A stretch of DNA of 64,000 bases. Origin: a virus (taxonomy: Duplodnaviria > Heunggongvirae > Uroviricota > Caudoviricetes). The stretch is taken from the IMG/VR virus record IMGVR_UViG_3300032030_000013. One strand, given 5' to 3'. A program made the translations under genes and the position numbers. The notes below the pieces were generated by a model, which had not been told where the DNA came from, searched no databases, and saw nothing but the letters and a program-made list of their open reading frames with translations. This document shows, piece by piece, positions 2,704 to 57,284 of this stretch. The number at the start of each line of letters is the position of its first letter. Position 1 is the first letter of the stretch.

Positions 2704-4596
2704 TTACGAATTCAACATTTGTTTACGTGTTTCAGAATCGCCCTTTGCAAACCATTTTCTAAACATACTATCTGCAGCTTCATCTTTTTTGAAATATAAG
2801 AATTTTGGTTCTTGATACATTTCCTTTGATTCTTGATTTGATAGACCACCAAGACCTTTCGCATATTTATGAGAATAACCTTTAAGTTTCTTTTCAGCTT
2901 CTTTAAATTCATCCATTGTATAGAATTTCTGACAGTCCTTTCCTTTTCTTGATATAATAATTGGAGATAGGCTTCTGCATACAATTCCTTTTTCAATAAG
3001 TTCAGGCCAATTATTAAAGAATAATAGAAGTAATGCCGCAATCTTATCACCATCAACATCAGCATCAGTAGATATAACAATCTTACCGAAGTTCAGATCA
3101 TTGATATTGAATTCTTTACCCCACTTAAGACCAAGAATTGTTACAATATCATTAAATACTTCATTTTTCATAACTTGAAGTGGTGTCATTCCATAACAAT
3201 TAGGTGGAACTCCTCGCATTGTATAGCCTGCCTGAAATTCTGGATTACGACCTCCTCTAAAGCCCGACTTTGCAGAGTCGCCTTCGAAGATCCATAGCTG
3301 TTTATTTGCTCTTACTTTTGAAGAACATGTTATATATTTATCAGGGCGTTTCAATCCTTTATTTGTTTCCCTATTGATTTTACGAAGTGCCTTTTCATCC
3401 TCAGCCGCAGATTTCTGTTTATACCAATCTCTTACTAATGCAACGATTTCTGACTTAATGATCTTATTTAAGAATTTTTCATTTACTTCCCACTTAAGTT
3501 TCTCATCTTTTGAGAACTTATCAATAGGAGTAGTCAACGTATCTTTAGTCTGTGAATCGAACGCAGGATTTGATACATTAATATCTATAAATACAGAATA
3601 CTTATTGTCGACTCCACGTGTAGTCAAATCCTTAAGTTTGTCTTTCTTTATAAGATAATCACACACAGCTTGATTGATTTCATTTCTAATTGCACGCATG
3701 TGAGTTCCTTTTGAACATTCTGCACCATTTACAAACCCAACATCAACAGAACTATCTGGGAATATCCATGCAGTACATAAATCATTTTCAAATGGAATCT
3801 TATCAGGAATATTCAATAAATTAGAATAAAGATCAATATATTCATCCAATTTCTTAAACTTCCATTCAATATCTTCACCACCACTATTGAATGTTACCTT
3901 AAGACCTGGATTAGCTGCAGCAGCATCAATGCATCTTTTATGAATTATATTAATGAAGTCATTATCAAAAGTTGTCAGTTCAGTTTCAAATCTACTAAAA
4001 TCTAATTTAAATCTCGTCTGTGTATAATGAGTTTTCTTTCCGCATTTTGTAACTTTAAGATCATTATTTAAAGTCTCCATATTATTAGACCAAGAACGAT
4101 GAAATTCATTCTTGCCATCTGCAGATTCAATTTCAAAATATGTAGAAAAAATGTTTGCTAGACTTGCTCCAACCCCATTCGTCCCTATAACGTTTCTATC
4201 TTCATTATCATCATAGTTTGAAGATGTACGTAATCGTCCAAATATAAATTCAGGAACATAGATACCTGCATCTTTATGTTTTACAATAGGAATACCACCA
4301 TTGTCTCTTACTACAATTTCTCCATTATCTTTATCAATCTTAACGTAAAGCTCAGTCAACCCCATGTTGTCTTTACGTCTAAATTCGTCAATAGAATTTG
4401 AAATGACTTCATCAGCAATTTTTAACATAGCAGGAATATAATTAACAATTTTCATTTCAAACTTTCCTGTCTTATAATTATAAATGAAGGCATCCTTTTC
4501 TTCATATTTTGTTGATCCTACCCACATTCCACTACGATGTAGAACATGTTGAACTTCTGATAACTCCTGGTATTTCTCTTCAATTTTCTTTGTCAT
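2704..4596 (-). CDS. DNA topoisomerase II large subunit (GyrB-like ATPase + Toprim; T4 gp39-type)
   Basis: HVLHRSGMWVGS matches the GyrB N-terminal motif. GTNGVGASLANIFS is the GHKL ATP-lid. WIFEGDSAKSG is the Toprim EGDSA motif. 630 aa. Confidence 0.85.
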   Translation of the reverse strand: MTKKIEEKYQELSEVQHVLHRSGMWVGSTKYEEKDAFIYNYKTGKFEMKIVNYIPAMLKIADEVISNSIDEFRRKDNMGLTELYVKIDKDNGEIVVRDNGGIPIVKHKDAGIYVPEFIFGRLRTSSNYDDNEDRNVIGTNGVGASLANIFSTYFEIESADGKNEFHRSWSNNMETLNNDLKVTKCGKKTHYTQTRFKLDFSRFETELTTFDNDFINIIHKRCIDAAAANPGLKVTFNSGGEDIEWKFKKLDEYIDLYSNLLNIPDKIPFENDLCTAWIFPDSSVDVGFVNGAECSKGTHMRAIRNEINQAVCDYLIKKDKLKDLTTRGVDNKYSVFIDINVSNPAFDSQTKDTLTTPIDKFSKDEKLKWEVNEKFLNKIIKSEIVALVRDWYKQKSAAEDEKALRKINRETNKGLKRPDKYITCSSKVRANKQLWIFEGDSAKSGFRGGRNPEFQAGYTMRGVPPNCYGMTPLQVMKNEVFNDIVTILGLKWGKEFNINDLNFGKIVISTDADVDGDKIAALLLLFFNNWPELIEKGIVCRSLSPIIISRKGKDCQKFYTMDEFKEAEKKLKGYSHKYAKGLGGLSNQESKEMYQEPKFLYFKKDEAADSMFRKWFAKGDSETRKQMLNS

Positions 4597-5859: not shown

Positions 5860-6387
5860 TTAGAATGTAGATGTTATATGTTTTTTATATTCTTTAAGAC
5901 CTAATGCTTTTTGCTTATATTTTATTGATTCTTCCATATATTTATTTACATAGAAATCACTAAGTTTTTTAAATGATTTAATAGCTTCTTTCTTTGTAAT
6001 ATAATATGTACCGCCTTTTATTGGTGAATATGATGTGTTATCTATTGGCGCATCAAATGAAGTCTCAATATTTGAATCATAAATAGATTCTAATTTGATT
6101 GTTATATGTTCTTCATCAGGTTCTTCTGCATATGATGTGCCAACTCCGTTTGGTCTATCACCAGACATTTTCATATATTGCACAGGCCATCTTCGTATAG
6201 CAGGATATTCTACATCTTTTACTTCAACTTCGCATATATCAATACCTTCTGTTATTACTTCAGGTTCTGTCATTAATGAAGCAAATATTTCTTGAATATT
6301 ACTTGTTGGTTTCTGTCCATTCAGCTTTTCATAGTCTTGAATAAAATATATCTTATCCCCAGACTTAATATCTTTAAACGTTTTCAT
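5860..6387 (-). CDS. hypothetical protein
   Basis: 175-aa ORF, tightly packed with its neighbours. Confidence 0.5.
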   Translation of the reverse strand: MKTFKDIKSGDKIYFIQDYEKLNGQKPTSNIQEIFASLMTEPEVITEGIDICEVEVKDVEYPAIRRWPVQYMKMSGDRPNGVGTSYAEEPDEEHITIKLESIYDSNIETSFDAPIDNTSYSPIKGGTYYITKKEAIKSFKKLSDFYVNKYMEESIKYKQKALGLKEYKKHITSTF

Positions 6388-7601
6388 CCTAACATTTCTT
6401 TAATAACTTTTTTATCCATAGCAGGCATATATTGTTCTATAGCTTTCAATGTATTAGATATGCTATATTTAACTTTATTTGGAGATATGCCTTCATTTTC
6501 TGCGATTTCATTTATAGACATTGGGAACGGTTTTTCAATTCCAAATTTCTTTTTGATAATTCTTCTGTCTAATGCAGATACGTTTCCTAATGCTCGTTCG
6601 ATCACTTCTTTAAATAGATTCTGGCGTTCCATGTTTTCCATTATCTCATCTTCTATAACGAACTCTTCATTAGCAACACGAGATATCTGATTATCATGAT
6701 ATGTATCTTCAGTATGTGGGTTCATACTATCTAATCGTAATACGTTTACTGGAGATATGCCTTTTTTCTGAGCAGACTTTGGAACTCTGATTATCTTACC
6801 TACCTTTCCAATTTCTGCTAATATCATTGCACGAATCCATGCAAATCCTATGGATGAAAATGATGCTTTCTTAACATTATTATTCGTCCATTCTATAAAA
6901 TCAAATTTTGAATTAAAACCATTATATGGAAGTTTCTTTAATGTTGGATCTAATATTTTAGAATACTTAAAATTCTTCCTTATAATTTGTTCTGCTTCTT
7001 CTAACGTAAACTCATTATTGGAAGATTCTTTAATGTCATTTAAAATATTATTTCTAAGATTTGATCTATCTGTATCGAATTTATTGAATGCCATCAGTAG
7101 TCCTTCATTACCTGCTTGTATCAAATCTTCTAATGGTAATCCGAGATTCTGATAACGTTTTGCACAATCAATAACAAGTTTTAAATTATTCTTTATGAAT
7201 ATATCTTTATTCTCTGGTACAAAAGCCATCTCATCAGACTCTCCCATAGGGTGCAAGATATATTCACGTTTTACTTCATTAAAATAAATATCTATATTGT
7301 TATCGAATGTAGCTTTAGATACATATTTGTTAGCTAAACGTTTTCTAGTTCTTTCTTTTAGATCATCATAAAATTTTTCGTAAATTTCAAATTCATATGC
7401 ATTTAAAAGTTTATTGCATTCTTCTATATAATAATCTACTATGACTGATTCTGAACAGTCTTTTAGCATTTTGACATCTTTAAATACAATGTCTTCGAAA
7501 TTATCAAAAAATTCGTGATCAATAATATTATTTTCTACAGAATCTAAAAAACTATCAATTTTATTTGAAGATACTTTACTTAAATTAAACTGTCTACTCA
7601 C
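6384..7601 (-). CDS. sigma-70 family RNA polymerase sigma factor (phage-encoded)
   Basis: LEDLIQAGNEGLLMAFNKFD is region-2-like. IGFAWIRAMILAEIGKVGKIIRVP is region 2.4/3-like. The C-terminal HTH INEIAENEGISPNKVKYSISNTLKAIEQ is region-4.2-like. Confidence 0.65.
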   Translation of the reverse strand: MSRQFNLSKVSSNKIDSFLDSVENNIIDHEFFDNFEDIVFKDVKMLKDCSESVIVDYYIEECNKLLNAYEFEIYEKFYDDLKERTRKRLANKYVSKATFDNNIDIYFNEVKREYILHPMGESDEMAFVPENKDIFIKNNLKLVIDCAKRYQNLGLPLEDLIQAGNEGLLMAFNKFDTDRSNLRNNILNDIKESSNNEFTLEEAEQIIRKNFKYSKILDPTLKKLPYNGFNSKFDFIEWTNNNVKKASFSSIGFAWIRAMILAEIGKVGKIIRVPKSAQKKGISPVNVLRLDSMNPHTEDTYHDNQISRVANEEFVIEDEIMENMERQNLFKEVIERALGNVSALDRRIIKKKFGIEKPFPMSINEIAENEGISPNKVKYSISNTLKAIEQYMPAMDKKVIKEMLG

Positions 7602-7949: not shown

Positions 7950-8210
7950 CTATTTACCAATTATATAAATAATGCCTATCATAAATATTATAACAACAAA
8001 TATCATAAAAAATGTAAAACAACCAAGAAATGGATTTTCTGATTTAAGTTTATGTTCTGCATTAATATATCTTTTACATTGTTCAATCCATATTATAAAT
8101 TTATAATATGGTTTTTCATACCATGATGCAAATACTAATGCAAGCTTATAATTAGATTCTTTCTTACTAATTACTTTACCGAAAGACTTATATATTTCAT
8201 AATCACCCAT
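7950..8210 (-). CDS. hypothetical small membrane protein
   Basis: 86 aa with a C-terminal hydrophobic helix FTFFMIFVVIIFMIGIIYIIG. Confidence 0.4.
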   Translation of the reverse strand: MGDYEIYKSFGKVISKKESNYKLALVFASWYEKPYYKFIIWIEQCKRYINAEHKLKSENPFLGCFTFFMIFVVIIFMIGIIYIIGK

Positions 8211-9336
8211 TTATTAAACAATTTAAATCTATAACAAGGCATTCTGCATATAGTTCTTCTTCCTCCATAATATTGAATCTTATTGATGGAGCTCCAGCAC
8301 AATTAAACTGCCATGATGCATCAGAATCTTCAGGACACCAAAGACATTCAATAACGCAAGTTCCTTTATAGTTGTCTTTCTTAAGTTCTTCAAATTCTGA
8401 ATCTTCAATAGAAGTAAACATTGTTTCTTTAGCTTTCTGATATGTCTCTTCATATTCATCAACCAAATAGAAATCACCAGGCTTAACTAATTTAATAGTA
8501 ATACCTTCCCATGCTCCTATCTCATCATCAATAGCACCACGTAATTCTAAGTTATCATCAGAATATCCAAATACTACTACCCAGTTATTTTTTTTACAGA
8601 TTTCTTCTACATTAAGGTTATATTCATTACGAAGTTCATCTCCATATTCATTACCATCAAGCAGATTAGCAAGATCATCAATAGTTTCAATATTTCTTGG
8701 TTTGATCTTAGTCTTAATTTCTTCTAATAATGACTGTTTAATAGATTCAATCATTTTATCATCCCAACTATTATTAACACAATCAAAGAAATTCTGAGCA
8801 CCATATTTATTGATATTATAATCTATCCATTGCTTAATTGTAACACCTGAATCAATTATCAAGTCTCTTTTCTGTTCATCAGTCATAATCATAACTTTAC
8901 TATTTTTTATGTTATTATCTTGTTTATTCTTATAATCTTCATATTGAATATGATATTGTCTTTCAAGATCTTCCTTAAGATATTTAAATTTATTTAATGA
9001 ATTTATCAATGCTGAATATCTATTGCATTCTAAACAGCCAGATGCTAAACTTTTACCACATTCAGTACATTTCTGTCTTATGTCAAGCCATTTAATTTCT
9101 GCTTCTTCTGTTGATTTAATTAACTCTTCGCATTGATATGATATACCATAAGTCTTTTCATATTCATCTAAAGCCTCACGTAATACTTTTTGTAAATCGT
9201 AGTTCTTTTTAGCATCTTCACAACCACGACAGTCATCACAACCATTTCCAGGTCCACAATGAAGACATGGGCTTTCTTTATAATATTTATCCTGAGCTTC
9301 TTTAATCTTCTTAATATGATCTTCTTTAGTTTTCAT
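8203..9336 (-). CDS. hypothetical protein with N-terminal Cys-rich (multi CxxC) zinc-ribbon-like region
   Basis: CLHCGPGNGCDDCRGCED ... CTECGKSLASGCLECNRY. 377 aa. Confidence 0.5.
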   Translation of the reverse strand: MKTKEDHIKKIKEAQDKYYKESPCLHCGPGNGCDDCRGCEDAKKNYDLQKVLREALDEYEKTYGISYQCEELIKSTEEAEIKWLDIRQKCTECGKSLASGCLECNRYSALINSLNKFKYLKEDLERQYHIQYEDYKNKQDNNIKNSKVMIMTDEQKRDLIIDSGVTIKQWIDYNINKYGAQNFFDCVNNSWDDKMIESIKQSLLEEIKTKIKPRNIETIDDLANLLDGNEYGDELRNEYNLNVEEICKKNNWVVVFGYSDDNLELRGAIDDEIGAWEGITIKLVKPGDFYLVDEYEETYQKAKETMFTSIEDSEFEELKKDNYKGTCVIECLWCPEDSDASWQFNCAGAPSIRFNIMEEEELYAECLVIDLNCLING

Positions 9337-9456
9337 CTATATTCTTAATTTTTTTCCTGCTTATCTTATTAAAAAAGTTCACTCTTTTCAATTTATCATC
9401 AGTCTTGTTTGCATTTGCTAAATATGCATTCTTTGCTTTCTTCTTTTTATTTAGAC

Positions 9457-9798
9457 TTACCATATGTTCTGAAGTAAATATAATTGTGGCTTTCCTTTTG
9501 CATACTTACTAAATATCTTATCAATATCAGGATTCTTCTTAATAAAATCATTATATGATTTTGTTATCTTATTAATAAGTTTGTTATCAATAATTAATTC
9601 ATTTTCCTCATTAGAATCATAATGAGCTAGTATAGGACCAAAATAGATATACTTGCCACACATATGATCTTTAATAACTACATTTTGAGTATCATCAAAC
9701 CAATCTTCATTGATCTCATTCATAGCTTCTTCAAACTTATTGATTTTATCTCCGGTCAATTTCCAACCGTAAATTAAACTTGTGTAATTGTCTATCAT
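9457..9798 (-). CDS. hypothetical protein
   Basis: 113-aa ORF. Confidence 0.45.
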   Translation of the reverse strand: MIDNYTSLIYGWKLTGDKINKFEEAMNEINEDWFDDTQNVVIKDHMCGKYIYFGPILAHYDSNEENELIIDNKLINKITKSYNDFIKKNPDIDKIFSKYAKGKPQLYLLQNIW

Positions 9799-9815
9799 AA
9801 TATTAATATTTTTAT

Positions 9816-10277
9816 TTATTCATAAATTTCACATGTTATATCTATATCATTTAAATATTTTATCATAAGTGGTTTTACTTGTGTTTCCCAATCAAGTTTA
9901 CCATTTGCACATCCTAACTTAGGCCATGCTATTGATGCAATATTCCATTTTTTATAATTGTTTACAAAGTTTTGTAGTCCACGTTCTATCCATTCTATCT
10001 TTGATGGATATTGCCACATTACTTTTGTCGCAAAACAAAGTATCTTTCTTTGTTTGAACATATCTACATAATCCCAAATCCATATATCTCCACCATGTGA
10101 TAAATGATGTTCTCTTGTATTATTTTTGCATACATATCTGTATTCATTAAACATCTCAGGATATCGTTGCTTATATTGTAATGCGATGCCTTTTCCCATT
10201 ACACCCATACAATTAACAGTATTGACTAATGTCTGACATTCAGAATCAAATATATTACCCGTTTTGAATATTATCAT
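9816..10277 (-). CDS. macro domain protein, TARG1/OARD1/DarG-like (ADP-ribose binding or removal)
   Basis: GNIFDSECQTLVNTVNCMGVMGKGIALQYKQRYPEMF is the macro-domain core. The C-terminal PKLGCANGKLDWETQV...DIDITCEIYE parallels TARG1 PRIGCGLDRLQWENV...DIKITVYT (recall-based). Confidence 0.65.
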   Translation of the reverse strand: MIIFKTGNIFDSECQTLVNTVNCMGVMGKGIALQYKQRYPEMFNEYRYVCKNNTREHHLSHGGDIWIWDYVDMFKQRKILCFATKVMWQYPSKIEWIERGLQNFVNNYKKWNIASIAWPKLGCANGKLDWETQVKPLMIKYLNDIDITCEIYE

Positions 10278-10701
10278 GTTGCATTTTGATATAGTTTAAT
10301 TTTTCATTAAGTTCTATTAAGTTCTTTTTTCCTTTTTCTATAACTTCTTCTACATTTTTAATACTATCTTCTAATCCTTTTACATATTTATTCCAAAGTG
10401 CATCTTTATCAAAACAACACATTATAGATATTATATCTTTATCATTCCAATCACATTTTAATGTTGGCAATAAATCTGTCAACAAAGGAATATTATAATC
10501 ACGTCTTTTCCCAGTATCAAATAATGATATATATTTATCTGAACCATCAGGAAGCTTAACTGTCAAATCATAATATCCTGTCCAAAGTTGCTTCTTAATA
10601 TTGATATTTGTAACAATCAATGGAACCAACTGTGGCTTAACACCTTCAGATATAGTCCAAAGTATATCATTTACTTTAATGTCTTTTGCAAACTTACTCA
10701 T
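10255..10701 (-). CDS. hypothetical protein
   Basis: 148-aa ORF. Confidence 0.45.
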   Translation of the reverse strand: MSKFAKDIKVNDILWTISEGVKPQLVPLIVTNINIKKQLWTGYYDLTVKLPDGSDKYISLFDTGKRRDYNIPLLTDLLPTLKCDWNDKDIISIMCCFDKDALWNKYVKGLEDSIKNVEEVIEKGKKNLIELNEKLNYIKMQHDNIQNG

Positions 10702-11134: not shown

Positions 11135-11136
11135 AA

Positions 11137-11840: not shown

Positions 11841-11855
11841 ATATTGTTTACCATA

Positions 11856-12115: not shown

Positions 12116-12373
12116 CTATTTAAAATTAAGAACTTCTATGCGTTGTTTATCTTTATTATCTATTAATTTACAAGTTATACGAACAATTGATTTATCATAA
12201 AACTTATAATCTATTGATCCATCTTCATTACGGGTTTCATCAATTTTAAATGAGTAATCTGACCAATCTATGTTATGATAAATATATTCATTATTTTCAT
12301 CTATTCCTGGATAAAAATATAAATGCTTATAATTTTCTTTATCTATATATATTGAAACAAATCCTGGTATCAT
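12116..12373 (-). CDS. hypothetical small protein
   Basis: 85 aa. Confidence 0.35.
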   Translation of the reverse strand: MIPGFVSIYIDKENYKHLYFYPGIDENNEYIYHNIDWSDYSFKIDETRNEDGSIDYKFYDKSIVRITCKLIDNKDKQRIEVLNFK

Positions 12374-12813
12374 TGCGGAAAATTTGATGGGTCGTCATAT
12401 GATTTATATCTTCCTATATTACTATCTATAATTGGTGTTTTATTATTTTCTGTTGCTTTCTTAATTTCTGCTGCATGATATTTTTCCATATCTGAAAAAT
12501 CTTTAGGTTCCATACCTAATTTATTCATGCAATTGTCTTTTGTTCTATCATCAGCAAAATTAGCATACTTATTCTTAAACTTTTCAAATTCTTCTTGTAA
12601 ATGTTTTAAATCATTTTGAAGTTCATCTGCTATTAATACATCTTTATCGATACAATTAGCAAACATTTTATTAACCCGTAATCCTGGAAGAATATCTTCA
12701 TTTCTTAATAAAGATTTCATTATTTTACTTTCAGTATCAGGATTATATTCATCATAATATTCAACTTCTAAAAAGAACGGAACTTTTGCCTGATGCCATT
12801 GATTATTATCCAT
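12370..12813 (-). CDS. hypothetical protein
   Basis: 147 aa. Confidence 0.45.
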   Translation of the reverse strand: MDNNQWHQAKVPFFLEVEYYDEYNPDTESKIMKSLLRNEDILPGLRVNKMFANCIDKDVLIADELQNDLKHLQEEFEKFKNKYANFADDRTKDNCMNKLGMEPKDFSDMEKYHAAEIKKATENNKTPIIDSNIGRYKSYDDPSNFPQ

Positions 12814-12845: not shown

Positions 12846-12881
12846 TAGACAATACTTAGAAAAAGTTCTAAATATTGTCTA
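12846..12881 (-). terminator. putative terminator hairpin (TAGACAATA...TATTGTCTA plus T-run on minus strand)
   Basis: Extended imperfect inverted repeat 3' of 12905..13207. Confidence 0.35.
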
Positions 12882-19082: not shown

Positions 19083-20252
19083 TCATACTTCTTCTAATTC
19101 TATTTTTTCTTGGTGCTTAACTGCTTGAATATCATTAGATTCCCTGTCTGCTTCATTAAGGCATTCTTTCATAAGTTCATATGCATCTGAGAATAAGCTA
19201 AGTATCTTCTTATTCTTCTTAATGAAACTATTAATCTTAAAGCAGTAATATGTAATATTTGAATTTGCTACATTATATTTTTCAGCAATTTCCTTATTCT
19301 TCATTTTCTTGTGACCACGAAGACCATAGAATGAATACCAAACATCAAGAATCTTTGAATCAAATTCATCCTCAAGAACTTTCCAAATACGATTCCAAAG
19401 TTTCTCAAGATCTTCACTATCTAATTTCTTTCCTGCATCTGATGTTGATCCAATGAAATCAAACATTGTTTTTCCGCCTTCATCATCATGTCCTACAGCC
19501 TTATCACCAGATACTGATATGTTCTTTGTATTATGACCCTTTTGATCACGTTCCTTTTTCTGTTGTGAAGCAGGAATTCTTACAAGATGTGAATCATTAA
19601 CACCATTACCAATAATTTGATTACGCATACAATATGCTGCATACTGTCCAAAAGTATAAGATACTACAGCCTCATCAGTTGCAGTAGATTTCTTATTCTT
19701 TTTGCCATAAGTATTCATAGCATAAACCAAACCTTCTGAGCAGCAACCCAAAAGATCATTATAGCCAAGGTTAATCTTGCCAAGCCATTGCTTAGCAATC
19801 TTATGAATAAGTGGTTCATATTTCTTAGCAACAGCAGTACGTCCTGCTTCAGAATTCAAATCAAGTATAATTGCGTCAGGAGCCTGTTTCTTATTGATAA
19901 TTGATTCAAATTCTGCCTTTGTTTGGAACACTGGAATTTCCATATAACGTCCAGTCTTAATAAGAGTTCCAAGTAATTTATAAAGTTCTTTAAGATTATC
20001 CTTTGATGGAACACCAGCTTTATAAAATCCTGCTAAAGCATTCTCATCTAAATCATTAGATAATTCTGCAATATATGTATCATTATTTACAATAAGCCAA
20101 TTAATGATGTCTTTGGCTTCTGGAGAAATGAAATTATCAGCAATTTCTAAATACTTCTTGAGGTCAGCTTCCCCAATATAGTTTATAGAATTACTTTGTA
20201 CATCAAACTGAATTTTTGATTTTGCTTCTTTAATTTGAGTTAAACTTTTCAT
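19083..20252 (-). CDS. second sigma-70-family sigma factor (phage-encoded)
   Basis: CSEGLVYAMNTY...FGQYAAYCMRNQIIGNGVNDSHLVRIPASQQKK is region-2-like (YAxYxxRNxI...RIP). The C-terminal KNKEIAEKYNVANSNITYY is a region-4-like HTH. Confidence 0.6.
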   Translation of the reverse strand: MKSLTQIKEAKSKIQFDVQSNSINYIGEADLKKYLEIADNFISPEAKDIINWLIVNNDTYIAELSNDLDENALAGFYKAGVPSKDNLKELYKLLGTLIKTGRYMEIPVFQTKAEFESIINKKQAPDAIILDLNSEAGRTAVAKKYEPLIHKIAKQWLGKINLGYNDLLGCCSEGLVYAMNTYGKKNKKSTATDEAVVSYTFGQYAAYCMRNQIIGNGVNDSHLVRIPASQQKKERDQKGHNTKNISVSGDKAVGHDDEGGKTMFDFIGSTSDAGKKLDSEDLEKLWNRIWKVLEDEFDSKILDVWYSFYGLRGHKKMKNKEIAEKYNVANSNITYYCFKINSFIKKNKKILSLFSDAYELMKECLNEADRESNDIQAVKHQEKIELEEV

Positions 20253-22137: not shown

Positions 22138-23913
22138 ATGATACATTTTGTTTTTTCTGATAGTGATCCAAGATATTTGTTTTTAAAATATGATTCTGAA
22201 TATGATGAAATTAATTTAAAGAAACTTAAGGATCATATCAATCTTACAGATCCTATATGTTATCTTTCAACATATCATGGACCACCATTTACTCAGGATT
22301 TCTTATATACATATGTCCAGCCTTCAGGTAATATCATATATTATTGTGCAATAGGTTTATGGCAAGAAATATATTTATTCTTTAAAGAAAATGATATTCC
22401 TTTTGATGGTTTATTAGATCATAGCGAAGTATTCAAAAGAAACATACCGCATACATTTGAACAATTTAAAGAAATTGTAGATAACTGGGGATTGAAGTTT
22501 TCACCAAGACCATATCAATATGAAGCTGCATATAAGATATTAAACTGGAAACAATCTGTATCTGAATTAGCTACTCGTGCAGGTAAGACATTGATAGCTT
22601 ATATGATATTTAGATATTGTATTGAATATCTTGGGGCTAAAAGGATATTAATGATTGTGCCTTCTATTCAGTTAGTAACACAAGGATATAATGATTTTTC
22701 AGAATATGCAGAATTCTTTAATACTGAATGTGTATGGGGCGGTGGTAAGTTAGTTGAATTTGCTAATCTTACAATAGGAACATTCCAATCATTAATTAAA
22801 TTCTTAGATAAAGGAACAAAATCAAAACCAAATAAAAAGTATAATCCAGATTTCTTTAATGGATATGATATAGTGTTTGTTGACGAGACACATAGAGCAA
22901 CTGCTAATCAAATTAAGACAATTATTAGTCAGCCATTTATGAAGGATGTTAAAATTGCTTTTGGTATGACTGGAACGATTCCTAAGAAAAAGACTATTGA
23001 ATATTACTGTCTTAAATCATTACTTGGTGCTACAATACAAGAGATTAAGCCAAAATATTTGATGGATGAAGGATATATATCAAAAGTAAATATTACACAA
23101 GTAAGACTTCATTATAAAGATTTAGAGAAATCTATTAATAATTATATATTATGCGCGGAATATGCATTATCTGAATTTGTAACAGAAGAAAGAATCAATC
23201 GTAATGGAAAGAAAGTACAAGAACGAATAAAATTAGATAATCCACAGTTTCAGATACAGTTCAAAAAGAAACTACCAATGGGTATTAATGAAATGAAATT
23301 GCAATTTTATGAAGATACTGATGAAGGAAAAAAGAATTGGATTCAAACATTAAAGACTTATATCAATATGTCAGAATCAACTAATTCATTAGTTGTTGAA
23401 AGAATGGTATCGCATTTTATGACAGAACGTATTGATTATCTTTGCAATAATATATTAGCGCAATGTGATAAGAATACATTGGTACTTGCGCATCATACAG
23501 AATATATTCATTATATAACAGATATCATTAAGAAACGTTTTCCAAATAAGCATATAGATACAATTACTGGAGCAGTATCACCAAAGAAACGTGATGAGAT
23601 TAAACAAATGCTTAAAGAAAATAATGATTGTATATTGATAGCATCTTATGGTACGTTATCAACGGGTATTACGTTATCAAATCTTTGTTATGGTGTTTTA
23701 TTTGAATCATTTAAGTCAGAAGTAATTAATATGCAATCAATAGGTCGTGGGTTGGGATTATCTGAACTTAAGGAAGAATTTATATTATTTGATGTAATTG
23801 ATTGTTTTGATAGAAAGATATTATCAAATAAAATATATCTACAAGGTTTAGCAAAATGTAGAAAATATGATGAAGAAAAATATCCATATAAAATTATAAA
23901 TGTAAATATATAA
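22138..23913 (+). CDS. superfamily-2 DNA/RNA helicase (DExH box)
   Basis: LATRAGKT (Walker A), IVFVDETHRA (DExH), MTGT (motif III), C-terminal helicase domain with QSIGRGLG. 591 aa. Confidence 0.7.
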   Translation: MIHFVFSDSDPRYLFLKYDSEYDEINLKKLKDHINLTDPICYLSTYHGPPFTQDFLYTYVQPSGNIIYYCAIGLWQEIYLFFKENDIPFDGLLDHSEVFKRNIPHTFEQFKEIVDNWGLKFSPRPYQYEAAYKILNWKQSVSELATRAGKTLIAYMIFRYCIEYLGAKRILMIVPSIQLVTQGYNDFSEYAEFFNTECVWGGGKLVEFANLTIGTFQSLIKFLDKGTKSKPNKKYNPDFFNGYDIVFVDETHRATANQIKTIISQPFMKDVKIAFGMTGTIPKKKTIEYYCLKSLLGATIQEIKPKYLMDEGYISKVNITQVRLHYKDLEKSINNYILCAEYALSEFVTEERINRNGKKVQERIKLDNPQFQIQFKKKLPMGINEMKLQFYEDTDEGKKNWIQTLKTYINMSESTNSLVVERMVSHFMTERIDYLCNNILAQCDKNTLVLAHHTEYIHYITDIIKKRFPNKHIDTITGAVSPKKRDEIKQMLKENNDCILIASYGTLSTGITLSNLCYGVLFESFKSEVINMQSIGRGLGLSELKEEFILFDVIDCFDRKILSNKIYLQGLAKCRKYDEEKYPYKIINVNI

Positions 23914-23915: not shown

Positions 23916-24113
23916 ATGAAAGAAAGATTCGGTTGTTTATTAGATCCAAACGATTATCCTAATATGTGTTATTCATGTGAACACTATAATGATTATGGAC
24001 CAGTTGCTGGCAGATTTAGTAAGTATAATGGCAAATGTAAATTTGATGGACATGAAACAGATGCATTAGTTAAATGTAAAATAAATCAATATAAGAAATT
24101 AAATCATGAATAA
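23916..24113 (+). CDS. hypothetical small Cys-rich protein
   Basis: CYSCEHYNDYG...CKFDGHETDALVKCK. 65 aa. Confidence 0.4.
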   Translation: MKERFGCLLDPNDYPNMCYSCEHYNDYGPVAGRFSKYNGKCKFDGHETDALVKCKINQYKKLNHE

Positions 24114-24480
24114 TATTAATATATTAAAAGAATATGAAGAGTTTATGCAGACGTCAAAGTTCTATCCACAAGATAAGTTGCCAATAACATATCCTGCATT
24201 AGGATTGAATGGAGAAGCTGGTGAAGTAGCAGAAAAAGTAAAGAAATGCTTGAGAGATAACAATGGTGTTTTTACTGAAGACATTAAGAAAGCAATACTT
24301 AAAGAACTTGCAGATACATTATGGTATATATGGGCATGTGCTGATGATATGGGATATGCATTACATGATGTATTAAGAGTTGGTATTGAAAAAGTTAAGA
24401 ATCGTAAAGAAACAAATACTGTGCATGGTTCTGGAGATAATAGAGAAGAAAAACAATTAGAATTTTTGAAAAATATTTAA
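24106..24480 (+). CDS. MazG-like nucleotide pyrophosphohydrolase
   Basis: All-alpha NTP-PPase signature GLNGEAGEVAEKVKK...ELADTLWYIWACADDMG. 124 aa. Confidence 0.6.
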   Translation: MNNINILKEYEEFMQTSKFYPQDKLPITYPALGLNGEAGEVAEKVKKCLRDNNGVFTEDIKKAILKELADTLWYIWACADDMGYALHDVLRVGIEKVKNRKETNTVHGSGDNREEKQLEFLKNI

Positions 24481-24923: not shown

Positions 24924-25361
24924 TTAAATTATCTTATCTACAATTTCTTTTTTACCATTTTCATATTTTACCCAGTTTCCATTTACAAAATAATAATTTG
25001 CTTCTGTTTTACCTAAGTATTCCCATCTTTTATAAAATTCAGGATCTTTTGCATATAATCGTCTTTTGAAATTTGTATATAATTCATCACATAGAAAATT
25101 AGGTTGAATCAATTCTGCTTCTTTAGATAATTGTTTACATAATTCATAATCTTTATTTCTATATGCAATAAAGCATTCCTTATATTTTTTTACCCAGTCA
25201 ATATGGTCTTTATACATTAAATATGCAGGGTGATTAGAAGGTTTTGTTTTTCCTTCTGCCATATTTATAATCCATTGACATTCTACAATCTGCTTATTAA
25301 ATCTTTTTACATCAAGATCATTAGCAGTATCAGCAACAGTACCAGTTATAAAGATTGTCAT
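24924..25361 (-). CDS. hypothetical protein
   Basis: 145 aa. Confidence 0.45.
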   Translation of the reverse strand: MTIFITGTVADTANDLDVKRFNKQIVECQWIINMAEGKTKPSNHPAYLMYKDHIDWVKKYKECFIAYRNKDYELCKQLSKEAELIQPNFLCDELYTNFKRRLYAKDPEFYKRWEYLGKTEANYYFVNGNWVKYENGKKEIVDKII

Positions 25362-26972: not shown

Positions 26973-29900
26973 TTAATCTATAATATTAGCAGTCATCTGG
27001 CCTGTTCTATATAAATGAAGTTCTTGTACCATCTTACCACAACCCATACCAGGTTCAATGTGAGTAGAGATAACAGCCATTTCATTATCAATAATTTCAG
27101 GAGTATTATTAGATTCGTCCATAATATTTCTGTAAGCTTGTATACCACCATTAGCAGCAGTTACAGCACAGATTTGATTAACCTTATCAAGGATTGCATC
27201 ACGTGTACGTTGGTTATTGAATTCCCATTGATAACGTTGAAGAACCTTTTCAATTTCATCCTGTAAGTATATGCATAATTCACGAACATTTACCTTAGAT
27301 AATGCAGAAACTGGAGTCTGCTTAGCAGTTTGGTTAGCGTTAATGAATGTACCGAAGTTTGGACGATAAACCATAACGTTTACACCAAATGGTTCAATTA
27401 TCTGAAGTTCATCTTGAGAATATTTGTAGTCAGGACCAACAAGACCTGCAGCAGAAATATTACCATAATTAGGACCAGCTACAATGTAGTATGGTTGACG
27501 TGACATATACTTTTCAATAAATAAGTTAGATACAAGACCTGCAGAAGGAACTATAGTATCAATATATCCATCAGTAAACTTAAGAGGTGTATAGAATGCG
27601 ATGAATGATGCTCCGTCTAATTCTGTTGGTAAACTAAACATTATAGCAGCAGCTTTCTTCTTGTTATATCCTTTAACAACGTATTCTACATTGAATACTC
27701 CCTTTGAATCAGTAAATGAAGTATATGGACACTTAACAAATGATTGTACTGATGGGAAGTTACCAATTGCAAATGCAGATTGTTTTTCTTTACATAAGTA
27801 AGAAAGTGTATTCTTAAGATTAGAAACTGGGAATGATTCAAATGTATCAATTACATAACGGTAATCAATTTCAGCCTTATTCAAAAGACCTGTACGAAGA
27901 CCCTTGTAATCAGTAATAGCAGAAAGTATGAATTCTTGCCATTTTACTTTAGCATACATATCAGTTCCAAGTGGACGATCATTCTTGTATGTATAACCTT
28001 CAAGATATTGAGGTTTCATTGTACCGATTTCTTGGTTAAGAGCAGCATCAATACGAACTAATGATTGGTTAGTAATTGAACCAGTTTCAGAATCTAATAT
28101 TTCGTATAAGAATGGCTCTGCAGAAAGAAGAACATAATAATATAAGAAATTACCATTTTCATCTAACTTAGTACCTGTTTCTTGTACATATACATTATCT
28201 TCAAATCCATCATTATCGTCATTTTCACCATTATCGTTATAATCAACAGTATTATCTTTAGCTAAGATACAATCACCCTTTTGAAGTACGTTAATCAATG
28301 AAGAATCATATTTAGCAGTACCAATTAATGCAGCTTGTGGAAGACCTGGAGTTATTTCAACGTCAGTTCTCCATTCCCAGTTATCATCACAGAAATCAAT
28401 GAATGAAACAGAAGAACCATAAACAGAATCAGCACCAACTGTATTAGTATTTAAGTATGTAAGATTAGTCTTGATTTGAACTGTCTTAAATGATGGCTTC
28501 ATGTTTTCATCTATATCAGTATAGATTTGACCATCAGCACCTTTATTTTCAAGACGAGATAATGCAGTAATAACCTTTTCAGGACCAGCTAATGGATTGC
28601 TTTCTTCAATAAATGCATTACCATTTTTCCAATATGTTCCTAAGCCATCAACAGGATTTCCTTCTTCATCATAAATAACACCTAATTTCTTAGCAGCTTC
28701 AACTGTCTTATTAGATTCACCATCATTAAAGAATGTCATTGTAACTTCTTGTTCAGTACCAACTTGAGAAAGTTTAATTTGATTAGAAGTAATTGTCTTA
28801 ACATATAATGTACCTGCAACACGAGTATTGCCAACAAAGATATCTTGTGCTGGAGTCTTTGTTTCAGGATCATATACATCAGTATGGAATTTAATCAAAT
28901 CAGCAATAACTGGTGAATTAATATTACCTAATACTGATGTTGTAGCAGTACCTGCATATATCTTATCAATATTTAATGATGAATTTAATTTATTAGGATT
29001 TTCAATTGTTGGGATAAACATACGACCTGAAAGATCAATGTTAGCAGCCAATTCTTCTTCTAATAAATCAGTATTGAATGACATCATTAAGTTATGAGTA
29101 TCAATATCACTATTGAATACAACGTTAAGACATGCATATGCACCTTGTTTATTCTTGAAGTAAGGTATTAATGATCCAATATAGTGACCTAATGCATTAG
29201 ATGTTTCATCTCTATACAATGCGTCAAGAGTATCAACTGAATCACCAAATGGATTAATTACTTTATCACGTAATTTAAGAACTTGGTTACCATTATCATC
29301 AAGTTCATTAGTGATAATGAAATAATCTTTAAGTGTATCAGAAGCTAATATCTGTTTTGCTTCGAACTTTCCTTTGAACACGTAAATTTCTGCAAAGAAG
29401 TCAGAAATTAAGTTATTTTTGTAAGGTTCCATAAATTCAGGCATATCTTCATCAGAATACCAATCGTTTACAGTAATGTTATATCCTGCAACTTTTGAAC
29501 CTGATGCTTTACGTATAAAATATGTTGCTGAATTTGCTTTTATATTAGTTGCAGAAATATTAATATATTGATCTAACAATGCACCTTCTACTGAACGTAA
29601 ATTATTTAAATGTTCTGCATCTAATGTCCAAAAACGAGTTGTGTCATATATATCCTCTATATTAAGCTTAACCTCATCAATAGGATTGAATTTAGGGTTA
29701 AAGTCTGTACTGATTGTAGCAGCACCTACTGTTTCATTATCAAACTTTTTAAGGTTAAGACATAAAATAGGACTTACCTTAAGCATTTGTAAAGCCAAAC
29801 GATGGAAGTATATGCCACGCTTTTCAAGCTTTTTAGATATGTCACCAAATAACAACTTAAATTCTTGTGGGTTACGAACGAATACTGGAACATTGAAAGG

Positions 29901-30029
29901 TCCTTTTTCTGAGTAACCAACAACTAATCTAAGAAGCTGTGTATCTTCATTCATTATTGTAGAATGGTCAAATACAACACGGTAAATACCTGCAGCTTTA
30001 AATTGTTGCAAATGTACTGGAATTGCCAT
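26973..30029 (-). CDS. contractile tail sheath protein (T4 gp18-like), 1018 aa
   Basis: C-terminus DESNNTPEIIDNEMAVISTHIEP parallels T4 gp18 DTTNNTPSVIDRNEFVATFYIQP. Lies between the MCP and the tube. Less AT-rich codon usage. Confidence 0.75.
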   Translation of the reverse strand: MAIPVHLQQFKAAGIYRVVFDHSTIMNEDTQLLRLVVGYSEKGPFNVPVFVRNPQEFKLLFGDISKKLEKRGIYFHRLALQMLKVSPILCLNLKKFDNETVGAATISTDFNPKFNPIDEVKLNIEDIYDTTRFWTLDAEHLNNLRSVEGALLDQYINISATNIKANSATYFIRKASGSKVAGYNITVNDWYSDEDMPEFMEPYKNNLISDFFAEIYVFKGKFEAKQILASDTLKDYFIITNELDDNGNQVLKLRDKVINPFGDSVDTLDALYRDETSNALGHYIGSLIPYFKNKQGAYACLNVVFNSDIDTHNLMMSFNTDLLEEELAANIDLSGRMFIPTIENPNKLNSSLNIDKIYAGTATTSVLGNINSPVIADLIKFHTDVYDPETKTPAQDIFVGNTRVAGTLYVKTITSNQIKLSQVGTEQEVTMTFFNDGESNKTVEAAKKLGVIYDEEGNPVDGLGTYWKNGNAFIEESNPLAGPEKVITALSRLENKGADGQIYTDIDENMKPSFKTVQIKTNLTYLNTNTVGADSVYGSSVSFIDFCDDNWEWRTDVEITPGLPQAALIGTAKYDSSLINVLQKGDCILAKDNTVDYNDNGENDDNDGFEDNVYVQETGTKLDENGNFLYYYVLLSAEPFLYEILDSETGSITNQSLVRIDAALNQEIGTMKPQYLEGYTYKNDRPLGTDMYAKVKWQEFILSAITDYKGLRTGLLNKAEIDYRYVIDTFESFPVSNLKNTLSYLCKEKQSAFAIGNFPSVQSFVKCPYTSFTDSKGVFNVEYVVKGYNKKKAAAIMFSLPTELDGASFIAFYTPLKFTDGYIDTIVPSAGLVSNLFIEKYMSRQPYYIVAGPNYGNISAAGLVGPDYKYSQDELQIIEPFGVNVMVYRPNFGTFINANQTAKQTPVSALSKVNVRELCIYLQDEIEKVLQRYQWEFNNQRTRDAILDKVNQICAVTAANGGIQAYRNIMDESNNTPEIIDNEMAVISTHIEPGMGCGKMVQELHLYRTGQMTANIID

Positions 30030-34076: not shown

Positions 34077-35120
34077 TTATTTAATTGTACCCATATCTTT
34101 ATATGTTTGTGGTAATTCTGATAATCCATATATTCCAGAAAGTCTAGGAAAGTTACTCCAAGCAGTTTGATATTCGGATATTAATTCATCTGGTACATAT
34201 ATTGTAGTATCAGCATCATGAAATCCATCAGTCCTTAATAATGTTGGCGGAGTTATAGCTTTACATGCCAAAACTATTTGTCCAGTACCACCAGATCTTT
34301 CATTCATATTTCGTCCCCAATGTTGTGCATCTATTTCTGTAACTGTTGTAGGTAATTCAATATATACACATTTTGTCGCACCAACAATAGCACCCATACA
34401 TGTAATACCTTCTGGAGCTATTATTTTTTCAACACCACTATTATTAAACATGTGTTCACTAATTTCATCACATCCTGGAGGCAATATTCCATCATACCAT
34501 TTTATTGATGAGCATTTATTATATAATCCAAAATATTTTCTATATTTATCTCCTCCAGTTATTGTACAATTATTCCAATTAACTTTTGTTAATGATGAGC
34601 AGTTATAAAATGGGCTATGATCATAATATCCTCTAGCCCAAGATGCAACAATTGGTGGCATAGTTACTTCTTTTAATGATGTGCAATTTTTAAATAAATC
34701 AGTAAGACCACTATTACTTGTAAAATATTTAAATTCATTAAAATATATTATTGAAGTTCCACTAATTTTTGTATTTGATGCAATTAAATTAATATTAGCT
34801 GCTTGTTCTGCAGTAATTCCTTCTTCAGTCCAATTAATTGCATTAAATAATATTTGTTTAGAATTTTCATCTTCAAATAATATATAATATCCATCTGCAT
34901 TTATATGTAACTGGTTGAATCTGTTTTTGATAATATTTATATATTCTTCATAAGTATATTCAGTATTGATTGTTCCAATTATATTAGTATTATTATCAAA
35001 TATTGTTTCACCATTATTTTCCCTGTTAACTAATTTATATAACTTGTTTATCAATGAAGGTGGAACATTATATTCAATTATACTTTCTTGTTGATTTACG
35101 TTTATATGTAAAGTTGACAT
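34077..35120 (-). CDS. tail fibre / receptor-binding protein paralog 3 with BspA-type leucine-rich repeats
   Basis: Shares the N-terminal module (M..HI.VNQ..NVP..LI.KLY.L ... YTYEEY ... GYYILFED) with 35245..37044 and 37073..39226. The C-terminal part is LRR_5-like. Confidence 0.6.
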   Translation of the reverse strand: MSTLHINVNQQESIIEYNVPPSLINKLYKLVNRENNGETIFDNNTNIIGTINTEYTYEEYINIIKNRFNQLHINADGYYILFEDENSKQILFNAINWTEEGITAEQAANINLIASNTKISGTSIIYFNEFKYFTSNSGLTDLFKNCTSLKEVTMPPIVASWARGYYDHSPFYNCSSLTKVNWNNCTITGGDKYRKYFGLYNKCSSIKWYDGILPPGCDEISEHMFNNSGVEKIIAPEGITCMGAIVGATKCVYIELPTTVTEIDAQHWGRNMNERSGGTGQIVLACKAITPPTLLRTDGFHDADTTIYVPDELISEYQTAWSNFPRLSGIYGLSELPQTYKDMGTIK

Positions 35121-35145
35121 ATTATATGTTCATATATTTATATTG

Positions 35146-35220
35146 ACCATGTTGGAGTTGAATCCCAGTTAATTGTTTCATTTGGACCTAATCCCATATA
35201 TTCTTCTATTAAATATTATT
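35146..35220 (-). pseudogene. orphan remnant of a fibre C-terminal module (encodes ..LIEEYMGLGPNETINWDSTPTWSI*) with no start codon
   Basis: Nucleotide and protein similarity to the 3' end of 37073..39226 (..LIEEYMGLLPGESINWDSTPTWGV*). Lies just downstream of the stop of 35245..37044, whose product ends LIEEYMNEK*. Confidence 0.5.
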
Positions 35221-35244
35221 TAATTTTATTTTTTAGTTTTATGT

Positions 35245-37044: not shown

Positions 37045-37072
37045 TCGTTATTTACTTTATAATTTTATTATA

Positions 37073-57281: not shown

Positions 57282-57284
57282 AAT

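Follow-up and report, generated by a model that had tools for sequence, protein, structure and literature searches.

A stand-alone DarG-type macrodomain gene as a candidate orphan anti-DarT2 factor in an uncultivated phage

The gene under study (the macro gene) lies within the window, the whole 64-kb stretch of DNA that was analysed, and is listed with its neighbours and active-site codons in Table 1. Its product (the macro protein) reads MIIFKTGNIFDSECQTLVNTVNCMGVMGKGIALQYK...AWPKLGCANGKLDWETQVKPLMIKYLNDIDITCEIYE in the ORF listing, and the two motif strings quoted in the initial annotation, GNIF...LVNTVNCMGVMGKGIA and PKLGCANGKLDWETQV, were both found verbatim in this translation. The protein matched Pfam Macro (PF01661, E 1.8e-11) and PHROG 335 (E 2e-35), with 458 homologues at E<=1e-5 in a word-indexed search and 8490 representatives at E<=1e-3 in an exhaustive search. 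These matches are far above chance, and the product is confidently predicted from its sequence and modelled structure to be a macrodomain. The macro gene gave dN/dS values of 0.10-0.19 against three orthologues, and values among the orthologues spanned 0.08-0.19, indicating that the macro gene is real and under purifying selection. Close relatives of the protein (60-88% identity) sit on phage contigs of 118-468 kb, and the window itself encodes the phage hallmarks gp23-like capsid, sheath, topoisomerase II and a sigma factor. No DNA near-identical to window positions 8000-12000 was found among GenBank phages, so the phage is not represented there. The carrier belongs to a lineage of large, AT-rich, uncultivated phages whose source is apparently gut or rumen-type communities.

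Table 1. Positions of the macro gene, its active-site codons and other features of the 64-kb window
Feature	Position	Strand	Detail
Stand-alone DarG-type macrodomain gene (AdfM-like orphan antitoxin candidate)	9816..10277	minus	ATG start, 153 aa
Stop codon of macro gene	9816-9818	minus	
Asn22 codon (AAT)	10212..10214	minus	equivalent to T. aquaticus DarG (TaqDarG) N22 and PhiKZ AdfM N23
Lys85 codon (AAA)	10023..10025	minus	equivalent to catalytic Lys80 of TaqDarG, Lys84 of TARG1 and Lys78 of PhiKZ AdfM
L121-G-C-A-N-G126 codons	9900..9917	minus	phosphate-binding loop closing on ADP-ribose; equivalent to TaqDarG L116-G117-A-G119-N120-G121
ORF upstream of macro gene	10255..10701	minus	148 aa; last 23 nt overlap macro start
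ORF downstream of macro gene	9457..9798	minus	113 aa; 17 nt past macro stop
Phage sigma-70-family factor	6384..7601	minus	405 aa; Pfam Sigma70_r2 4.4e-6; PHROG 351 2.5e-18
RNA ligase	57285..58751		Pfam RNA_ligase; about 46 kb from macro gene
AAA_33 kinase (PNK-like)	56049..56573		about 46 kb from macro gene

The overlap of the upstream ORF with the macro start suggests that the two genes are probably co-transcribed and translationally coupled. This 148-aa ORF had no Pfam or PADLOC match and one weak PHROG match (phrog_20012, a family of unknown function, E 9.7e-5). It also precedes the identical macro gene at two other loci (L001 and L002), but other small ORFs take its place upstream of an 85%-identical macro gene (L004); it is treated as context only, with a role in macro function that is putative at most. 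The downstream ORF had no Pfam, PHROG or PADLOC DarG match, and a gene of similar size (113-116 aa) occupies this position in relatives, in which the order macro gene, 113-116 aa gene, 377-417 aa gene and sigma gene was found (L004 and L005). In phiEco32, the macrodomain gene gp37 likewise lies immediately upstream of the sigma gene gp36. The sigma factor near the macro gene is here considered as context for the macro protein only. A split DarG with a detached C-terminal domain was rejected, as the 113-, 148- and 377-aa neighbours showed no PADLOC DarG match, which also ruled out the 113-aa ORF as that domain. A scan of positions 7500-13600 returned 53 promoter-like sites where chance alone would give 56, an uninformative result in such AT-rich DNA, and one terminator-like hairpin at 12881-12846.

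The macro protein matched the DarG profiles over their N-terminal part: PADLOC DarG (PDLC02990, E 9.9e-53) over profile positions 1-144 of 329, and NCBIfam DarG (NF048014, E 3.9e-52) over positions 1-147 of 338, with a score of 177.6 bits that lies below the curated equivalog cut-off of 250 bits. Among solved structures, the M. tuberculosis DarG macrodomain (5m3i, E 2.3e-31) matched best by sequence, ahead of its T. aquaticus counterpart (5m31/5m3e, E 3.6e-26) and the T. africanus DarTG fusion (7omu, E 1.7e-22). A structure prediction with fold search and an alignment of catalytic residues had been proposed as checks in the initial annotation, and both pointed to DarG. The AlphaFold (AF2) model (pLDDT 92.3, pTM 0.88) gave Foldseek TM values of 0.91, 0.89 and 0.88 to 5m3e, 7omu and 5m3i, respectively, ahead of TARG1 at 0.77-0.79, and the DarG catalytic residues were present in the alignment. 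Human TARG1/OARD1 (PDB 4j5q-s) belongs to the same ALC1/TARG1-like class and has the catalytic Lys in common with the macro protein; its sequence similarity is marginal (E 0.018) and confined to residues 78-151, the C-terminal half. In the HMMER alignment to 4j5r, Lys84 of the TARG1 Lys84/Asp125 dyad corresponds to K85, whereas Asp125 corresponds to Gly126. The clade assignment made earlier, to TARG1 and DarG together, thus held for DarG, which gave the best sequence and structure matches; the TARG1-like reading was dropped because the Asp is absent, the E-value marginal and the TM below that of DarG. On sequence and model, the macro protein is assigned specifically to the DarG type, with TARG1 as a distant relative. 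The ADP-ribose that DarT attaches to thymidine can also be removed by TARG1 (PMC9411070). Other substrates are accessible to macrodomains of the ALC1/TARG1/DarG class, and TARG1 and SCO6735 also de-ADP-ribosylate proteins (PMC9411070).

Asn22 and Lys85 were invariant in the family alignment of 33 sequences (A1), as were L121, G122, C123, N125 and G126 of the loop. Lys85 lies within an F-A-T-K-x-x-W motif, of which W88 corresponds to DarG W83. In the alignments, TaqDarG N8, T20, N22, K29 and Q34 corresponded to the same-numbered residues of the macro protein, and T79, K80, W83, G117, N120 and G121 to T84, K85, W88, G122, N125 and G126; the TaqDarG, MtbDarG and T. africanus sequences used were the aligned portions of the structure matches and are slightly truncated. 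The roles of these ADP-ribose contact and catalytic residues in TaqDarG were taken from PMC5179494, in which the K80A variant is inactive; mutation of the substrate-positioning Asn (TaqDarG N22 or PhiKZ AdfM N23) lowers activity (PMC5179494, PMC13309987). The sole difference in a contact residue is A124 in place of TaqDarG G119, which is common to the active PhiKZ AdfM (LGCANG); Ala or Thr at this position is the family norm. The substitution G119E impairs TaqDarG, and it is this Gly that A124 replaces. Position 126 is Gly, as in DarG, at the site where TARG1 has its catalytic Asp125.

A DarT gene was present in 72 of the 80 best bacterial and archaeal loci (41-53% identity to the macro protein), mostly on the same strand with DarT-macro gaps of -25 to +17 nt, and in 73 of these 80 the macro ORF exceeded 200 aa, the long two-domain form of DarG. 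Two DarT-macro fusions (P0133 and P0209) showed 49-52% identity to the window protein. No DarT was found in the six-frame translation of the 64-kb window with a profile built from 110 DarT sequences (best E 0.21), nor was a second macrodomain found in the window or a DarT at the loci of four close relatives (L088-L091). Among viral-contig relatives, 33 of 80 were complete DarT and DarG pairs, indicating that phages and prophages do carry DarT; 42 of the 44 stand-alone viral versions (<=200 aa) were without DarT within 6 kb on either side. A neighbour-joining tree of 162 macrodomains was built with 200 bootstraps; its TARG1 outgroup sequence, which also served in alignment A3, was entered by hand and not drawn from a database, and the HMMER alignment to 4j5r confirmed the Asp-to-Gly correspondence independently of it. 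The inner clade of the window family received 66-86% bootstrap and the deeper nodes about 0%. Derivation from DarG2 is therefore argued from the similarity ranking and not from a supported tree, and the topology is not used to claim independent DarG2 captures by the window family, PhiKZ AdfM and phiEco32 gp37.

The reading favoured here, with a probability of roughly 70%, is that the macro protein is an orphan, enzyme-only DarG2 macrodomain of the AdfM type that removes DarT2-derived ADP-ribose from the thymidines of phage DNA. Upon infection of a host with DarTG2, the DarT2 toxin would be freed and would ADP-ribosylate thymidines of single-stranded phage DNA at TNTC-type motifs, a modification expected to block phage replication or packaging. 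The phage macrodomain would then bind ADP-ribosyl-thymidine, and Lys85 together with Asn22 would hydrolyse the ribose-thymine bond, so that ADP-ribose would be released, the base restored and the phage allowed to escape. Because the macro protein has no DarT-binding domain, its mode of action would be catalysis on the modified product, with no sequestration of the toxin. The substrate, thymidine-linked ADP-ribose on DNA, is an inference, as are the defence that would be countered and the timing of expression. The T. aquaticus DarG macrodomain is by itself sufficient as an antitoxin (PMC5179494), and PhiKZ gp104 AdfM clears DNA of the ADP-ribose added by DarT2 and confers protection against DarTG2 (PMC13309987).

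It is unlikely, though worth weighing, that the macro protein is a de-ADP-ribosylase for a target other than DarT2-modified thymidine, perhaps one tied to transcription takeover. Candidate targets would be ADP-ribosylated proteins or RNA arising from another ADP-ribosyltransferase (ART) defence, such as CmdTAC-type mRNA ADP-ribosylation, or from phage Alt/Mod-like ADP-ribosyltransferases. TARG1 and SCO6735, of the same class, take both protein and DNA substrates (PMC9411070), jumbo phages commonly encode macrodomains as well as ARTs (PMC9503650), and the neighbourhood of macrodomain and sigma genes recurs here, in relatives and in the unrelated phiEco32 (gp37-gp36). The macro protein, however, is nearest to DarT-linked DarG2 and not to TARG1 or SCO6735; DarG is reportedly inactive on proteins (PMC9411070) and DarG2 macrodomains reportedly counter DNA ADP-ribosylation exclusively (PMC13309987). 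Moreover, the Asp of the TARG1 Lys/Asp dyad, used for protein substrates, is missing, and neither a scan of about 55 window ORFs nor the DarT profile turned up an ART domain.

A functional link between the macrodomain and the sigma factor, in which ADP-ribosylation connected with transcription takeover would be edited, for example on RNA polymerase or on transcribed ssDNA bubbles, is improbable. The macro protein would then be more than a general eraser of DarT2 marks. The two genes are neighbours in the jumbo-phage lineage studied here and, as a separate case, in podoviruses of the phiEco32 type, but this adjacency may reflect just common early or middle expression. A less far-reaching variant, also doubtful, is that an uncultivated megaphage lineage acquired a DarG2 macrodomain of the Clostridia type recently and independently; in that case, the macro protein would be the phage AdfM most like a bona fide DarG2.

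Equally doubtful is a phage-borne DarT-macro pair in split form, with the protein as its antitoxin half giving self-protection against the phage's own DarT encoded elsewhere in the genome, a toxin that might damage host or competitor DNA. The window covers 64 kb of a genome that is probably several hundred kb long, so that a DarT or another ADP-ribosyltransferase may be encoded outside it; relatives sit on contigs of 118-468 kb, and 33 of the 80 viral-contig relatives are complete pairs, as noted above. Where a locus carries DarT, however, DarG is long and nearly always its direct neighbour. The stand-alone viral versions, with two exceptions among 44, have no DarT within the 6-kb flanks; no DarT was found in the window, and both validated AdfMs, from PhiKZ and from T4, are orphans.

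The initial annotation had also offered a role on ADP-ribose-1''-phosphate (Appr-1''-p) in RNA repair, naming an RNA ligase, a PNK and a HAD phosphatase; the ligase and a PNK-like kinase were recovered, but the ORF next to the kinase (56570..56992) had no Pfam match that would make it the HAD phosphatase. Appr-1''-p is produced by the Tpt1/KptA 2'-phosphotransferase step of the fungal/plant-type tRNA ligation pathway and is not known to be made by the T4-type kinase and ligase pathway. That the macro protein is an Appr-1''-p phosphatase or an O-acetyl-ADP-ribose deacetylase, clearing small-molecule by-products together with these enzymes, is very improbable. In favour of such a role are the ligase and kinase in the window, the labels 'phosphatase' (PHROG 335) and 'Appr-1-p processing enzyme family' (GenBank homologues), and a weak similarity to yeast Poa1p (6lft) that covers only residues 4-52 (E 6.7e-4; Foldseek TM 0.79 query-normalised and 0.73 target-normalised, 17% identity). 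The labels, however, are generic legacy macrodomain annotations, the ligase and kinase are far off and show no synteny with the macro gene in relatives, no Tpt1/KptA domain was found by Pfam or PHROGs in the ~55 window ORFs scanned, and the DarG-specific features (Lys85, W88 and DarT-linked nearest relatives) would be left unexplained.

If the anti-DarT2 reading is correct, the AdfM strategy, in which a phage retains the catalytic half of a host antitoxin without its other half and uses it to erase DNA ADP-ribosylation, would reach beyond the Pseudomonas/Erwinia chimalliviruses and T4. It would also give a functional label to a family still called 'phosphatase' or 'Appr-1-p processing enzyme', with 321 phage records in GenBank and metagenomic proteins in the thousands, and the macro protein could serve as an indirect marker of DarTG2 use by the hosts of the phage.

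Compared with known systems, the macro protein shows 39-40% identity to the DarG2 proteins of T. aquaticus and M. tuberculosis, with which it shares the fold, both catalytic residues (Lys and Asn) and the contacts to ADP-ribose; for DarT-linked DarG2 proteins from Clostridia and further bacterial groups, identity rises to 51-55%. It differs from DarG2, a type II/IV antitoxin, in length (153 aa against about 290-370 aa), in having no C-terminal DarT-binding domain, and in its origin, since DarG2 belongs to a cellular toxin-antitoxin locus whereas the macro protein comes from a lytic-type large phage with no adjoining DarT.

PhiKZ gp104 AdfM (Morgan et al., Cell Rep 2026, PMC13309987) is 34% identical to the macro protein (E 6e-22). 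Both are phage stand-alone proteins of about 150-160 aa without a DarT partner or the DarG C-terminal domain, the N/K active-site pair and the LGCANG loop are identical between them, and in each case the match to the DarG profiles stops at about profile position 145. PhiKZ AdfM scored 132.9 and 137.8 bits on PADLOC DarG and NCBIfam DarG, respectively, with the macro protein higher on both, and it carries an insertion ahead of the loop as well as a tail at its C-terminus. It is imported into the chimallivirus nucleus, whereas the 64-kb window, which encodes sigma factors and a gp23-like capsid protein, holds no signs of nucleus formation.

The phiEco32 gp37 group (Kuravirus, Chaseviridae and jumbo phages; PHROG 335) is also stand-alone and DarG-like, with 43-47% identity to the macro protein and 144 bits on the DarG model, and gp37 adjoins a phage sigma factor as the macro gene neighbours one. 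These proteins come from phage lineages and hosts other than those of the window's phage, are labelled 'Appr-1-p processing enzyme family' in GenBank, and have a function that is only predicted. T4 Tk.4, a 155-aa stand-alone phage macrodomain also termed AdfM, is reportedly needed for T4 growth on DarTG2-expressing E. coli (HIDEN-SEQ preprint, bioRxiv 10.1101/2025.11.20.689424). Its identity to the macro protein is only 19-21% (E 1e-6), it scored 30 bits on the DarG model, and in the alignment made here the T-K catalytic motif is not kept, with 'NLY' at its place; these differences place it in another macrodomain subfamily.

The principle of an orphan phage macrodomain was recently established by experiment in PhiKZ and T4, and the macro protein would be a further example that reveals no new mechanism. 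It is much nearer to cellular DarG2 than to PhiKZ AdfM and nearer to DarT-linked DarG2 than either validated AdfM, which makes it a good test case for retained DarG2 specificity in orphan phage copies.

The macro gene, which opens with ATG and belongs to an extended run of closely spaced leftward genes, encodes a 153-residue window protein containing both strings quoted in the initial annotation, GNIF...LVNTVNCMGVMGKGIA (residues 7-32) and PKLGCANGKLDWETQV (residues 119-134). The protein matched Pfam Macro (E 1.8e-11; cut-off 22 bits) and PHROG 335 (E 2e-35), and its AlphaFold2 model, built from 33 homologues, showed the alternating beta/alpha layout expected for a macrodomain (mean pLDDT 92.3, pTM 0.88), indicating that it is unquestionably a macrodomain, as first proposed. 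Pairwise dN/dS against three orthologues was 0.10-0.19 (0.08-0.19 for all pairs), and the gene is therefore under purifying selection.

A sequence search covering all PDB chains matched the DarG macrodomains of M. tuberculosis (5m3i, E 2.3e-31) and T. aquaticus (5m31/5m3e, E 3.6e-26), the Thermosipho africanus DarT-DarG fusion (7omu, E 1.7e-22), Poa1p (6lft, E 6.7e-4, N-terminal 50 residues only) and TARG1 (4j5r, E 0.018, C-terminal half only). The same order was observed when the predicted model was searched with Foldseek (DarG, TM 0.88-0.91 and rmsd 1.7-2.2 Å; TARG1, TM 0.77-0.79; SCO6735, 0.75). Asp125, the second catalytic residue of TARG1, aligned with Gly126 of the window protein, as it does in DarG; therefore, the "DarG-like" part of the initial annotation is right, whereas "TARG1-like" is accurate for the broader class alone. 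The PADLOC DarG profile (E 9.9e-53) was covered at positions 1-144 of 329, and the score against the NCBI DarG equivalog NF048014 (E 3.9e-52; 177.6 bits) fell below the 250-bit full-length cut-off because only positions 1-147 of 338 were matched. Judged by profile coverage, the window protein is the predicted enzymatic half of DarG without the C-terminal DarT-binding half.

In T. aquaticus DarG (TaqDarG), hydrogen bonds to ADP-ribose are made by N8, L9, T20, N22, V31, Q34, T79, G117, G119, N120 and G121 (Jankevicius et al., PMC5179494); K80A abolishes activity, N22A, K29E and G119E strongly impair it, and W83 was proposed to stack on thymine (PMC5179494). HMMER and MAFFT alignments placed N8, I9, T20, N22, I31, Q34, T84, G122, A124, N125 and G126 of the window protein at the former positions, and K85, K29 and W88 at K80, K29 and W83. 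All ADP-ribose and catalytic residues were identical or conservatively replaced with the sole exception of G119 (A124), and the LGCANG loop is also found in the catalytically active PhiKZ gp104 (PMC13309987). N22, T84, K85, W88, G122, N125 and G126 were invariant in the 33-member family alignment.

We consider the window protein, with a probability of about 70%, to be an orphan antitoxin against DarT2 of a host DarTG2 system. Host DarT2 would ADP-ribosylate thymidines of single-stranded phage DNA, and the macrodomain would hydrolyse the ADP-ribose-thymidine linkage via its DarG-type Lys85/Asn22 site; lacking the C-terminal domain, it should act catalytically, not by toxin sequestration. The inference is short because the TaqDarG macrodomain alone is enough to neutralise DarT (PMC5179494), the stand-alone DarG2-like macrodomain PhiKZ gp104 ("AdfM", anti-DarT factor macro), 34% identical to the window protein, strips DarT2 ADP-ribose off DNA in vitro, relieves the toxicity of DarT2 and is needed for growth on DarTG2 hosts (PMC13309987), and the more distant macrodomain T4 Tk.4 is conditionally essential on DarTG2 (bioRxiv 10.1101/2025.11.20.689424). 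The anti-DarT idea of the initial annotation is sound, and was published biology as of 2025-2026. Action on another ADP-ribosylated substrate is unlikely.

An exhaustive representative search returned 8490 relatives at E<=1e-3. The nearest outside the phage family (45-55% identity) were mostly 230-440 aa with the macrodomain N-terminal, and two were fusions of DarT with a macrodomain, as matches to Pfam DarT (PF14487) confirmed. DarT linkage was scored with a profile from an iterative search seeded with the DarT domain of homologue P0133 (110 hits), at the 80 best bacterial and archaeal loci (one genome per species) and the 80 best from IMG/VR. Cellular loci (41-53% identity) contained DarT in 72 cases, usually on the same strand as the macro gene with a gap of -25 to +17 nt, and a macro ORF >200 aa in 73; four of the seven stand-alone ORFs (<=200 aa) were without DarT. 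On viral contigs the respective counts were 35 and 36, and 42 of the 44 stand-alone ORFs, mostly on large contigs, were without DarT. Long DarG occurred together with DarT in 33 of the 80 viral loci, presumably prophage-borne defence systems. A DarT carried by the phage beyond the window, with the macrodomain providing self-immunity, is quite improbable: the profile found no DarT in the six-frame translation of the 64-kb window (best E 0.21), nor was any found in the neighbourhoods of close relatives examined (contigs up to 179 kb). No second macrodomain was found in the 64-kb window. In the metagenomic protein P0174 (634 aa) three domains are fused, a DarG-like macrodomain (51% identity to the window protein), NADAR and a DprA/SLOG-like domain; it joins erasers of DNA ADP-ribosylation on thymidine (DarT2) and on guanine (DarT1).

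At E<=1e-5 a word-indexed search matched 458 proteins, of which the top 120 were mostly 148-157 aa with 56-88% identity; a few were fragments or up to 180 aa, and several lay on 300-468 kb contigs. Relatives on contigs up to 179 kb kept the order macro gene, 113-116 aa gene, 377-417 aa gene and 405-aa sigma factor. The 377-aa protein, 417 aa in relatives, has a Cys-rich N-terminal half (CLHCGPGNGCDDCRGC...; CTECGKSLASGCLECN). Sigma-like factor 1 lies three genes downstream of the macro gene, and in the unrelated podovirus phiEco32 macrodomain gp37 is directly upstream of sigma factor gp36 (L168, 2995..4102); this proximity may be a coincidence of early/middle gene clustering or a functional connection. 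The hairpin listed below is the sole terminator-like site within 7.5-13.6 kb and possibly marks where the transcription unit holding the macro gene begins.

Features of the window and its macro gene neighbourhood
Feature	Coordinates	Strand	Remarks
Topoisomerase II large subunit	2704..4596
Sigma-like factor 1	6384..7601	-	sigma-70 family, PHROG 351 E 2.5e-18
377-aa protein	8203..9336	-	C-terminal half: PHROG 25176, function not assigned, E 3.9e-18
Downstream ORF	9457..9798	-	starts 17 nt past macro gene stop
Macro gene	9816..10277	-	153 aa
Upstream ORF, 148 aa	10255..10701	-	23-nt overlap with macro gene start
ORF	12370..12813
Terminator-like hairpin	12846..12881	-	16 bp, perfect-looking, T-run after; just upstream of preceding ORF
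Sigma-like factor 2	19083..20252	-	sigma-70 family, PHROG 351 E 2.1e-13
Helicase	22138..23913
MazG-like nucleotide pyrophosphohydrolase	24106..24480	+
DenV-like pyrimidine-dimer DNA glycosylase	24924..25361	-
Tail sheath	26973..30029
gp23-like major capsid protein	30282..32066
Three consecutive BspA-type leucine-rich-repeat proteins	34077..39226	-	347, 599, 717 aa
2368-aa ORF	39231..46337	-	adjoins BspA-type genes
SPFH-domain protein, 674 aa	50716..52740	-	N-terminal SPFH/Band 7, Pfam E 1.4e-21
AAA_33 P-loop kinase	56049..56573	-	E 1.8e-20
140-aa ORF	56570..56992	-	overlaps kinase; no Pfam match
RNA ligase, 488 aa	57285..58751	-	RNA ligase domain E 1.9e-6, long C-terminal extension
DUF285 ("Mycoplasma") repeat protein	58785..59396	-

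The window (28% G+C) had no close counterpart among GenBank phages and is best regarded as a segment of a large, uncultivated myovirus. The MazG gene is among several plus-strand genes at 20.4-24.5 kb, the rest being mostly on the minus strand, and the SPFH/Band 7 protein is unusual for a phage structural or late region. Surface-protein-like repeats of the BspA and DUF285 kinds typify Firmicutes, Mollicutes and gut anaerobes; the proteins encoded here may act in host recognition and give a clue to the host. Several of the most similar cellular DarG2 proteins came from rumen/herbivore-gut Clostridia MAGs (L010, L015, L024 and L038, from Lachnospiraceae RUI374 and RUG170, reindeer and roe-deer rumen bins), with 48-51% identity by tblastn and up to 55% over the macrodomain. 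This origin fits, without proving, a Firmicute of the gut or rumen as host and donor. In a neighbour-joining tree (200 bootstraps) support was 66-86% for the phage family's inner clade and about 0% for deeper nodes; we therefore infer the direction and number of transfers from similarity ranks.

The RNA-repair genes invoked initially do exist, as an RNA-repair-like cluster (56049..58751) including the RNA ligase and AAA_33 kinase, but 46 kb separate them from the macro gene and they fall outside its conserved neighbourhood. Scanning about 55 window ORFs revealed no domain of the ADP-ribosyltransferase, NADAR, Tpt1/KptA or NAD-salvage type, and no tRNA gene was found in the 64-kb window. An Appr-1''-p or small-molecule role is very improbable.

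Identity to the window protein over the macrodomain was 51-55% for DarT-linked DarG2 (top, Lachnospiraceae MAG locus L010), 44% for phiEco32 gp37, 39-40% for M. tuberculosis and T. aquaticus DarG, 35% for PhiKZ AdfM and about 20% for T4 Tk.4 and TARG1. The window protein resembles bona fide DarG2 more closely than do the two validated AdfMs. T4 Tk.4 (gene tk.4; L170, 4926..5390, minus strand), also named AdfM in a 2025 preprint (bioRxiv 10.1101/2025.11.20.689424), had 19-21% identity to it, scored 30 bits on the DarG model and carried "NLY" at the catalytic "TK" of DarG, PhiKZ AdfM and the window protein, a tentative correspondence at such low identity. The two AdfMs thus represent separate macrodomain subfamilies, and their chemistry may differ. 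The window protein is a marker of a large phage lineage from metagenomes, and its family still carries the wrong label, "phosphatase" or "Appr-1-p processing", in 321 phage records of GenBank. ICP1 AdfB binds DarT (PMC11481870), whereas the window protein is expected to be catalytic. It is predicted to work like the DarG2 macrodomain, but does not belong to the DarG2 antitoxin family proper, since the defining C-terminal domain and DarT linkage are both missing; with the AdfM class it agrees on every computationally testable feature.
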